From Armatimonadota bacterium (GTDB taxonomy: Bacteria; Armatimonadota; Fimbriimonadia; Fimbriimonadales; Fimbriimonadaceae): a stretch of 64,000 nt of DNA. The DNA lies in NCBI GenBank assembly GCA_031400935.1, contig JANNQV010000025.1, positions 1 through 64,000 of the forward strand, given 5' to 3'. A program made the position numbers. Below, piece by piece: positions 21,001-24,000 of this stretch. Positions within the stretch are counted from its first letter, which is position 1; every line of letters starts with the position of its first letter.

Positions 21001-24000
21001 ACTTTCAATGGTGCGTCCCTAGGCAATACGGCTTATTCGTTGACAGTTCCTGCGGGGAACTCCCTTCAGGCAACAATTGACCTAATCAACAACGATTCGA
21101 AGCTAAAAGACATCCTGATAGCAACCAACGACGGTGGATCGCTAAAAGTTGAAGCAAGAAAATTCGGGACTAACGGCAACTTCACCGTTTGGTCCAACCT
21201 TGATGCTGCCGCTGATAATTCAGGAATTGGAAAAGTGGACGGAGTAATTGGAGCGCCAGTTCATTACACTGGTCTGGATACCGCAGGAACAATCAACGGA
21301 GAAACTGCGACGGGCAGCGGCCAATTCCTAACCGGCAGCGTAGGGAACGCGAACACCGAGGGTCTTCAAATTCTTTACACAGGCACCACAACTGGCAACG
21401 TTGGAACTGTCAAGTTTTCGCGAGGTGTTGCCGCCAGTATTCAAGACTTGGTGACTCAATTTACAGACGGTGTTTCAGGCCTGCTAACAGCGAACGACAA
21501 CTCGTTGCAAGCGCAAATCAAGAATATTGATGACACAATCGGGTCTATTCAAGCTCGGACTGTGCTAAAGAACCAAGAGCTTCGTAGGCGATTCTCAGTA
21601 ATGGAGCAATCCATCGCACGATTTCAGCAACAAGCTGGGCAGCTAAACGCGATTTCTTCAGGACTAAGATAGCTTAAATCGTCCGCTGACGAAACCATCT
21701 TAGCGCAGTTGCATTTACTCGGAATACTCATAGCATTCATGCCTGTTTTGAACCCAAAAAAGCAGGTAATTATCGCCGGAACTTCTGCAACCATTCAATC
21801 CGATTCTTTCATTGTGCCAATTGAAGTTGGCACATAGGTAACGGAATACCTTCAGAAAATCGGGGACGTGCAAGGATGGCGCGAAGAAATCTAAAAATTG
21901 TAAAACTGTTGGAACCAGAATTATGCGTTGAGTGCAGGTTTGCTCAAATGGCAGACGTTGAAGCAACAGATGGTTCCATGCAGCGCATGATTTATTGTCG
22001 CCGACTTGATTGCGACAACTGGGACTTCGGAAGTGCTGAGCCAGCGAGAAGCGTTCATGTAGATGAAGAAGCGGCGTAGGGGTCATTGGTTGTAAGTTAT
22101 CGGTTATTAGTTATTAGTTATTAGTTGATGGTTGTTGGTTACAGGTTGTTGTTACGTTTTGATTGATGGATGTATGAGCCTTTCCCTCCGCTAACCGCAA
22201 ACTGCCACCTGCCAAGCAACTGCGGACGCCTGTTCCGCCATGACTTTTGACCCACCACTTGATCATGCAGTAGACTTCGCGTGTTGTCTCATTCAACGTG
22301 CCCGAAAAGAATCAAAATTCTAAACTTTCCAGACGAAGCCTAATCAAACGGGTCGTCCTTGTAGCCAGTGGTGTGTCCGTTCTGGACGCCTTTGTTATCG
22401 AACCGAATTGGTTCCGCTTTTTCACCCAAACAGTTCCTATAATGGACCTCCCCCCAGAATTCGAGGGCTATCGAATCGCTCTCTATTCCGACATTCACGC
22501 ACCAAGAGACATAACGAAGAAAAACGCACAGAAGGCCGTAGAGTTGGCGATGGATTTCCGACCAAATTTGATTGTGCTTCCGGGTGACTTTGTCGCTCAG
22601 CCAAGGGGAGTTCATTGGGTTCCAAACCTTATGGAATACTTCGACGGCCTGGAAGCGCCTGACGGCATATTTGGAGTCTTAGGCAACCATGACCATTGGA
22701 CGAACGCCAAGGAAGTCGAGCGAAGAATTCATGCTGAAACACCAATTGAACTGATTCACGGTAGGCACATCCGTTTGAGGCGGGGAACTGGTGCCTTGGT
22801 TTTGGGTGGAGTCAATGACCTTTGGTGCGGGAACACAGATATTGATGAAGCATTGCAGGGAGTTGATCCAATCGTTCCACGAATATTGCTCAGCCACAAC
22901 CCCGATCTCGCCGAGATTTCGACCGCTAAAGCAAGAGTTGATTTGATGCTGAGCGGGCACACTCACGGTGGGCAAATTCGAGTTCCGTTCGGCCCTGCGA
23001 TCCACACCCCTTCAAAGTTTGGAGACAAGTTCGCCCAGGGACTGGTTGAAGGGAAAAGGTACAGGGTTTTCGTGACACGAGGAATCTGTTCTGCATTCCA
23101 TGCGCGATTTATGTGCCGACCCGAAGTTGTCGGTATTACCTTGCGGAGAATGAATTCGATTGAAGCTGAATCAAAGGCGGAAATCCATTCATAGAAGGTA
23201 TAGTTACGTTCCCAACGCGCTCGTAGCTCAGTGGATAGAGCAACAGGTTGCGGACCTGTAGGTCGGAGGTTCGAGTCCTCTCGAGCGCGCCATTTTCCTA
23301 ATTGTCCATTCCGGACACATGGGTAACAGGACGTTCCGAAGACATAGGTTACACTCTTCTTGTGTCCATTCCGGACACATTGGAAACGAGTACCTCAAGC
23401 CGTTCAAAGAGCCAACACTTAACCGAATGGTTAAGTGTTGGAAAAAATTATCAAAAAAACAGTAACGGAATTCCAAAGAAGGGCGTACAATATAAGTATT
23501 CGCAATTAGGAGAAATACGAAAATGAGTGATAGAGACAATGCAAACGGTTTGCTTTATATGTTGGCTGGAGTGGGACTTGGCGCGATTATCGGCGCAGCC
23601 GCAGGCCTGCTTTTTGCCCCTAAACCAGGAGCAGAGACCAGAGAAGAACTTGCAGACAAACTAAAAGAACTGAAAGACAAGACTGGTGAATGGGTAAACG
23701 AGCAACGTGCGAAGCGAAACGCCACGCCCAGCGAGCTTTTAGAAGAAATCGGAGCGTAACAGCCAAGAACGAGTATCCTTACCAGCATGACAGGTTGGAG
23801 GTTAGCGCTTTGGTTGGGAATGGCTTGCGGCGCATTGTGGTTCCTCTACCTCGTGCGCGGCATTTTATTGCCGTTTTTGCTGGCAATAATTATCTCCGTC
23901 GTACTTGATCCTTCAATTCGGAAGCTACGAATGCGAGGCATGAACCGGTTTTGGGCGGTTTCGCTCGTAATGGTCGCGTTTTTTGCGATCGTGACTGGAT

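Follow-up and report, generated by a model that had tools for sequence, protein, structure and literature searches.

How does a bacterium read the four CGN codons of arginine without inosine? The question arises from a tRNA gene in the window (the whole stretch of 64,000 nucleotides analysed here) of an Armatimonadota genome, referred to below as G000. In the canonical I34 system, tRNA-Arg(ACG) is converted to ICG, the deaminase TadA (NF008113) does the converting and tRNA-Arg(CCG) completes the set. G000 holds intact GCG and UCG tRNAs, no ACG and no tadA, and its CGN codons mean arginine; the feature therefore belongs to the already known TadA-independent G34+U34 decoding. Of interest beyond that are a phylum-wide map in which the exchange is visible in synteny, and a flip of CGA to preferred codon.

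The tRNA-Arg(GCG) gene and the missing deaminase

That the gene is genuine, as the survey's finding had it, is borne out by ARAGORN and Rfam, which both call it (RF00005, 70.6 bits, E 3e-15), and it folds as a full cloverleaf in the ARAGORN structure (Table 1). Under the wobble rules, G34 pairs with CGC and CGU, and U34 with CGA and CGG. The anticodon should accordingly read CGC by Watson–Crick pairing and CGU by G:U wobble and, having no A34, the tRNA is not a TadA substrate. A20, C35, G36 and the discriminator G73 are what we take to be the arginine identity elements. G37 is probably methylated to m1G37 by TrmD, encoded at C18:71198-71869 (255.6 bits, above cut-off). Logan contigs from two runs (X1 and X2) span the whole stretch with 0 differences and may themselves be the source of the DNA; two small-share runs (X3 and X4) cover conserved parts of the tRNA only. 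A search for a promoter or terminator adjoining the gene gave nothing above chance.

Table 1. Positions of the tRNA-Arg(GCG) gene, its landmark nucleotides and the other arginine tRNA genes of G000
Feature	Position	Strand	Basis
tRNA-Arg(GCG) gene, 76 nt, encoded CCA	23217..23292	+	ARAGORN; Rfam RF00005
Anticodon G34-C35-G36	23250..23252	+	Sequence; ARAGORN cloverleaf
A20 of D loop	23235..23235	+	Sequence, ARAGORN structure
G37, 3' of anticodon	23253..23253	+	Sequence; probable m1G37 by TrmD
Discriminator G73 of tRNA-Arg(GCG)	23289	+	
tRNA-Arg(UCG), intact	C41:11494-11569		ARAGORN
tRNA-Arg(UCU)	C15:474-547		ARAGORN
tRNA-Arg(CCU)	C65:106566-106641		ARAGORN

The G000 assembly (2.97 Mb, 67 contigs, 48.7% GC, 95.6% complete) encodes 47 intron-less tRNAs plus a tmRNA according to ARAGORN, where the survey's finding had 48 tRNAs; a low-threshold run that allowed introns returned 974 calls, mostly spurious, and was left out. 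The arginine anticodons are those originally listed (GCG, UCG, UCU and CCU, with ACG and CCG absent), and neither the ARAGORN set nor an anticodon pattern search of this 95.6%-complete assembly yielded tRNA-Arg(ACG). The CGN box is served by G34 and U34 only, whereas G34, U34 and C34 all occur in each of the other four-codon boxes.

The reported lack of tadA also holds, since all three deaminase-fold proteins of G000 are something else and a six-frame HMM search was null. One protein is best described as dCMP-deaminase/ComEB-like (144 bits, below that model's cut-off), the second is the N-half of RibD, sited at a contig end, and the third is a cytidine deaminase with no listed match to the TadA model; against the NF008113 cut-off of 150, the first two score 31 and 44.5 bits. 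A custom TadA HMM, built from 30 TadAs of the phylum, reached at most 44 bits in the six frames of G000, compared with 218–271 bits for true TadAs, and disclosed no tadA remnant there. We also considered a dead TadA, its catalytic Glu lost, beside tRNA-Arg(GCG), and rejected it, finding no remnant in G000 or the GCG loci fetched.

Because G000 is incomplete and in many contigs, the absence of tadA and ACG rests on its family (f1). None of the 38 f1 genomes passes the TadA cut-off, five single-contig genomes among them (G133, G142, G184, G198 and G287), and the lone ACG pattern match in the family contains no tRNA. GCG was found in 35 of the 38, the remaining three giving no match by two patterns, and UCG in 37, two of them intron-bearing. 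At the g9 intron loci Rfam returned no match, and the folding of the g9 intron gene was non-significant (z -1.4). CCG is present in 18/38 genomes (18/37 relatives of G000), and relaxed pattern matches in the 20 CCG-less genomes, two of which are single-contig, lacked tRNA arms when judged by eye. The two-tRNA state of G000 (GCG+UCG) is thus common to about half of its family.

These data leave hardly any credence to an assembly gap, in which tadA and tRNA-Arg(ACG) would sit in the unassembled part of G000 and the GCG gene would be surplus. The assembly is indeed incomplete, and surplus GCG genes are known from tRNA arrays of TadA-bearing genomes, but the GCG gene of G000 is of the housekeeping G37 type, with up to 92% identity to the GCG genes of other families and no more than 68% to the copies in arrays. 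The family results above, single-contig genomes included, run against a gap, the remainder of the G000 tRNA set is complete, and the CGA-rich ribosomal genes described below are at odds with I34 decoding.

TadA and arginine anticodons across the phylum

Our survey covered 301 genomes of the phylum with a completeness of at least 85%. TadA lies above the NF008113 cut-off in 31 of them (families f5, f10, f30, f37, f40–f43 and f46), and a further two, G071 and G186, encode true TadAs that score below it within the tadA tRNA cluster, bringing the TadA-bearing genomes to 33. From several hundred weak matches, 20 sub-cut-off loci were examined; 18 of these have no tRNA close by and encode deaminases of guanine-deaminase type (a presumptive label, from motifs) or of other kinds, which settles the doubt that weak TadA-like frames had raised.

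Of the 301 genomes, 211 matched the strict anticodon pattern for GCG, 31 that for ACG, 234 that for CCG and 150 that for UCG; such patterns overlook D-loop and T-loop variants. Searching again for ACG and GCG in 73 genomes gave matches in 44 (five further genomes were also re-searched), and D-loop-tolerant patterns recovered the ACG genes that had earlier been missed in TadA-bearing families. For UCG, a second search of TadA-less genomes was positive in 70/80, taken from 124 candidates. Families seemingly with neither GCG nor ACG (f29, f13, f8 and f3), which would be in a single-UCG state, and families seemingly without UCG, in which CGA would be unreadable, were discarded as candidates, the misses being D-loop and T-loop variants.

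Final counts come from a hand tally that left out seven genomes whose sole GCG match was either spurious or part of a tRNA array, and three genomes with ACG matches (one spurious, two from arrays), and that took 67 GCG matches of the strict search as given. By this tally, ACG occurs in 31/33 TadA-bearing genomes and a housekeeping GCG gene in 0/33, some of them having extra GCG genes within tRNA arrays; TadA-less genomes have GCG in 243/268 and ACG in 3/268. The covariation of TadA and ACG versus GCG that was first proposed from a smaller sample is upheld at this scale. The exceptions are ACG without TadA above cut-off in G019 and G156 (both f5) and in G211, TadA without a detected ACG in G207 and G186, and 25 of the 268 TadA-less genomes without a detected GCG, mostly fragmented assemblies. 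The canonical I34 system occurs in the 33 TadA-bearing genomes, where it lies in an old tRNA–tadA cluster, and is absent from G000 and its family. The claim that most Armatimonadota use GCG plus UCG needs amending: because CCG was found in 234/301 genomes, and in 18/37 family relatives, the norm of the phylum is GCG+UCG+CCG.

Synteny, trees and earlier reports of inosine loss

TadA-bearing families carry, complete or partial, the cluster Ser(GCU)-Arg(ACG)-Arg(CCG)-Arg(CCU)-tadA-Ser(CGA)-Ser(GGA). The corresponding clusters of TadA-less families read Ser-GCG-CCG-CCU in f33 and Ser-CCG-GCG-CCU-Ser-Ser in f34, tadA missing from each; Ser(GCU)-GCG is retained in f3, f4, f17, f18, f21, f23 and f38, and GCG-CCU-Ser(CGA) in f8, f13, f19, f22, f26, f27 and f29. 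No tadA remnant was detected by the custom HMM in the GCG cluster loci scanned. In G000 the cluster has dissolved and tRNA-Arg(GCG) stands alone outside it, as it does in 8/8 close relatives fetched. Beyond the phylum, 42/80 outgroup loci place a tRNA no more than 1.5 kb from tadA: Ser(CGA) usually follows the gene and Arg(ACG) often precedes it, and the order tadA-Ser(CGA) recurs in records of Nitrospirota, Bacillota, Atribacterota and WOR-3. Since outgroup loci share these tRNA neighbours, the cluster is older than the phylum, and the synteny indicates loss of tadA in the TadA-less families. In an unrooted RpoC tree built quickly from 31 genomes, the TadA-less f33 is sister to the TadA-bearing f10 (100%), and G000 falls within a 14-row TadA-less group (95%) separate from f33; on the simplest reading of these placements, TadA was probably lost at least twice in the phylum.

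The opposite polarity, a TadA-less GCG state that is ancestral in the phylum with tadA and ACG gained by transfer in the TadA-bearing families, strikes us as improbable. It draws on the TadA-less majority (268/301), on the RpoC tree being unrooted and on the TadA tree, which needs 3 changes for the phylum label, but the starred branches of that tree compel no more than one origin and its three TadA groups roughly agree with the RpoC groups. Distant phyla moreover have the tadA tRNA cluster too, and in TadA-less families it survives with the tadA slot empty; the available text of one comparative study likewise treats TadA as ancestral, at the bacterial root (PMC6063277).

We regard it as very probable that this lineage abandoned wobble inosine: ACG was swapped for GCG, tadA was lost, CGN came to be read by G34+U34 and codon use followed. 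In the ancestral cluster, the ACG gene would have been replaced by a GCG gene, leaving tadA without a tRNA substrate and hence free to be deleted, an order of events that we infer. Which gene supplied GCG is something that identity cannot tell (mean identity of the GCG tRNA is 0.705 to ACG, 0.695 to CCG and 0.733 to UCG). The reading of CGA would have passed to tRNA-Arg(UCG), and the auxiliary CCG gene would then have disappeared as well from G000 and from roughly half the family. G34 would serve CGC and CGU, while U34, probably xm5U made via MnmE/MnmG, would read CGA well and CGG weakly. Codon use followed, as the counts below show: CGA is now the arginine codon of choice, most of all in genes with high expression, and CGG is scarce where CCG is missing.

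Modification to xm5U34 on tRNA-Arg(UCG) is plausible in G000 because MnmE (321.6 bits) and MnmG (665 bits) are encoded, and CmoB gave no match in this genome. A rather unlikely variant has the U34 of tRNA-Arg(UCG) unmodified and reading all four CGN codons by superwobble, GCG merely assisting. Four-way reading of this kind is described in Mollicutes (PMC3711424, section 16), and MnmG was not found in three TadA-less genomes (G114, G128 and G155), but G000 has both enzymes, putatively acting on tRNA-Arg(UCG), MnmG is present in 14/14 other f1 genomes tested and GCG is kept in 35/38 family genomes.

Swap and loss, as favoured here, have precedents. The survey's finding took the wobble-inosine system to be essential and this alternative to be described so far for genome-reduced Mollicutes; TadA is reported to be dispensable in B. 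subtilis (PMC10454642), and G34+U34 decoding was already in print for Thermotogae, Spirochaetes, CPR and 19/319 bacteria. In the portions available of the papers cited here, all sequenced Thermotogae and Spirochaetes have GCG in place of ACG (PMC8007984), and Wald and Margalit (2014) give G34+U34 for 19 of 319 bacteria, with C34 also in 9/19 (PMC4041420), TadA-independent decoding as in our phylum. CCG is optional and goes with high GC, both in those nine and here, where the 18/37 relatives that have it show higher GC3. The Mycoplasma Pneumoniae group (Yokobori 2013, PMC3711424, step 5a) likewise has GCG+UCG, no ACG and no tadA, and the same text names Borrelia, Campylobacter, Helicobacter, Treponema and Thermotoga in a sentence that concerns quartet boxes generally. 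CPR/Absconditabacteria use GCG+UCG+CCG (Shulgina and Eddy 2021, PMC8629427), the three-tRNA set of most TadA-less genomes in our survey; in contrast to CPR/Absconditabacteria, the genomes aligned here show no codon reassignment, CGA is common rather than rare, and G000 has no CCG. Diwan and Agashe (2018) compared five inosine-loss clades, with loss in Spirochaetes, and tied TadA loss to ACG loss and GCG/UCG gain (PMC6063277); Armatimonadota are unnamed in the available main text. A paper on Fimbriimonas ginsengisoli, a cultured member of the family, gives tRNA counts, in its available text without anticodons (PMC4072686). Our literature search, mainly of open-access papers, turned up no report of TadA loss in Armatimonadota, an earlier table entry being possible.

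Compared with known G34+U34 cases, this one concerns a new phylum and genomes of 2–9 Mb, and extends a known scheme to about nine tenths of the sampled phylum. TadA-bearing sister families survive, so that the exit from inosine can be read in synteny, where short tRNA trees failed to resolve it in Mollicutes (PMC3711424, available text).

Arginine codon use

Of the six arginine codons, G000 uses CGA most, at 29% of Arg and 39–40% of CGN genome-wide. Most bacteria avoid CGA, inosine users in particular. Much of the genome-wide excess is background, as 31% of intergenic CGN trinucleotides, and 34–37% of those off-frame, are CGA. In 17 translation genes (six confirmed by NCBIfam), CGA accounts for 108/207 CGN codons (52%), an enrichment over the genome (OR 1.67, p 2.6e-4) that persists after next-base stratification (OR 1.60, p 0.0015); CGG is down to 8% of CGN, and no other codon box gains A-ending codons in these genes. 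The relative G142 shows a stronger effect (66% versus 37%, OR 3.3, p 2e-7), its rpoC having 73% CGA in frame against 31% and 44% in the other two frames, and is the one genome with significant ribosomal enrichment over background among six other TadA-less genomes tested.

Across genomes, where p values overstate because relatives are non-independent, the median CGA share in rpoBC is 0.03 in 15 TadA-bearing and 0.20 in 16 TadA-less genomes. The low-GC, TadA-bearing f10 is an exception at 21–31%, though no higher than its other boxes. Ribosomal genes lay downstream of rpoC in just 2/10 genomes, and ribosomal loci for codon counts were gathered via L2 loci, in 26 f1 genomes. Among these 26, CGA leads the CGN codons in 12, and its share is above that of A-ending codons in other boxes in 25. 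Genomes without CCG (n=16) have a median ribosomal CGA share of 0.48 and CGG share of 0.07, versus 0.26 and 0.18 in those with it (n=10), the CCG-less f1 genomes also having lower GC3; the maximum, 72% of CGN, is reached in ribosomal genes of CCG-less relatives with GC3 about 0.6. In ribosomal loci of two f5 genomes with TadA, the CGA share is 0.02 and 0.06. Within f1, CGA share falls as GC3 rises (rho -0.69).

This correlation, the 31–37% background in G000 and the non-significant ribosomal enrichment in five of the six other TadA-less genomes are what one would expect if CGA preference came from mutational bias or drift after the constraints of inosine had gone, and not from selection for the U34 tRNA. 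We consider that origin possible though doubtful: it fits poorly with a gain of A-ending codons restricted to the CG box in G000 translation genes, with its persistence under next-base stratification, with the in-frame excess in G142 rpoC and with the 25/26 f1 loci in which CGA outstrips other boxes. On balance we lean, if only slightly, towards CGA having turned into the translationally optimal arginine codon in part of the family, read by one U34 tRNA, after the loss of inosine and then of the C34 tRNA. With its TadA-bearing sister families, its two or more independent losses and the exchange of ACG for GCG in place, the phylum would then be a natural experiment in which the tRNA anticodons present determine codon optimality, which is able to flip.

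Of these results, those on codon use are the more useful. They bear on weak I34:A pairing as the cause of bacterial CGA avoidance, and CGA-rich genes from this phylum may express poorly in inosine-using hosts. CGA preference is also an exception to a published rule: the survey in PMC5066170 has optimal Arg codons as largely CGU/CGC, with AGA sometimes optimal in Spirochaetes and epsilon-Proteobacteria, and nowhere in its available text does the string 'CGA' appear. Our literature search, otherwise of listings, found no paper with CGA as a bacterial optimal codon.

Reassignment of CGA or CGG was ruled out as a candidate by alignment of RpoC in three genomes, a comparison with few CGG columns. 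Conserved arginine columns in G000 account for CGA at 14/14, CGU at 7/7, CGC at 12/13 and CGG at 1/1 positions, and CGA falls on such columns at 25/25 positions in G142 and 18/18 in G077.

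An intron in tRNA-Arg(UCG) and the distribution of MnmE/MnmG

Two Fimbriimonadaceae genomes of the same genus (G169 and G257) carry an intron of 216-217 nt in tRNA-Arg(UCG), placed by ARAGORN after U34 and ending in G. A search of Rfam gave no match for this intron, which contains stretches that we take to be group I core element-like, and none of the papers listed by a literature search on it dealt with a bacterial intron at such a site. Some 180-390 nt upstream of each intron-bearing gene lies the 5' part of the same tRNA, here intron-less.

MnmE and MnmG are the enzymes that probably modify U34 of tRNA-Arg(UCG). 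MnmG scores above cut-off in 0 of 9 cases in the TadA-bearing families f5 and f10, whereas most TadA-less families have it; G045, a genome of these two TadA-bearing families, is missing MnmE as well. MnmG was likewise not found in three TadA-less genomes (G114, G128 and G155). Across the whole source genome, G000, codon pairs of the form CGA-CGN are ~2.6-fold under-used, CGA-AGA and CGA-AGG are ~2-fold over-used, and before an A, CGA makes up 59% of CGN.

tRNA-Arg(ACG), deaminases and the empty tadA slot

In many genomes of the phylum, tRNA arrays include an A37-type tRNA-Arg of their own, with anticodon GCG, UCG or ACG. G026 and G217 have tRNA-Arg(ACG) through an array copy yet are without TadA, the wobble-inosine deaminase acting on this tRNA, and A34 is possibly left unmodified there. 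A genome of family f5 (G019) has the order Ser(GCU)-Arg(ACG)-Ala(UGC) at locus L328 (G019:C38:50000-62000), and genome searches found neither TadA above the cut-off of model NF008113 nor CCG; this ACG gene without TadA may reflect a contig missing from the assembly or a genuine TadA-less A34 state.

Several tRNA-Arg genes of family f8 (L298-L303, L309, L315) have C rather than T at T-loop position 55, and were missed by anticodon patterns because of this replacement. The empty tadA slot of G236, between Arg(CCU) and Ser(CGA), holds a Cys-rich ORF of at most 230 aa (L301:706-1395) with motifs that are presumably endonuclease-like. Deaminase-fold proteins of family f29 (L037, L044) have Asp replacing the catalytic Glu, with no tRNAs nearby.

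Sequence behind tRNA-Arg(GCG) and other loci of the source genome

Three elements follow tRNA-Arg(GCG) in the window: two 17-nt copies and a hairpin, the latter not called a terminator by a scan beside the gene.

Coordinates of tRNA-Arg features and adjoining elements
Feature	Position	Source or context
Intron-bearing tRNA-Arg(UCG)	L318:1450-1742 (G169)	ARAGORN
Intron-bearing tRNA-Arg(UCG)	L319:499-790 (G257)	ARAGORN
tRNA arrays with own A37-type tRNA-Arg	L057-L061, L069-L073, L093, L108, L109, L127-L129, L133-L135, L220-L224	
Two identical 17-nt copies, each with internal dyad symmetry	window 23303-23319 and 23363-23379	behind tRNA-Arg(GCG)
Perfect 13-bp hairpin without T run	window 23412-23441	behind tRNA-Arg(GCG)

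Elsewhere in G000, tRNA-Thr(UGU) occurs in two identical copies (C7:65-139 and C51:80432-80506), one at a contig start, and this duplication possibly marks an integration site. The S10/spc ribosomal cluster (C45:26301-35136) has ~1.5 kb between S10 and L3, and L5 is the last gene before it stops.
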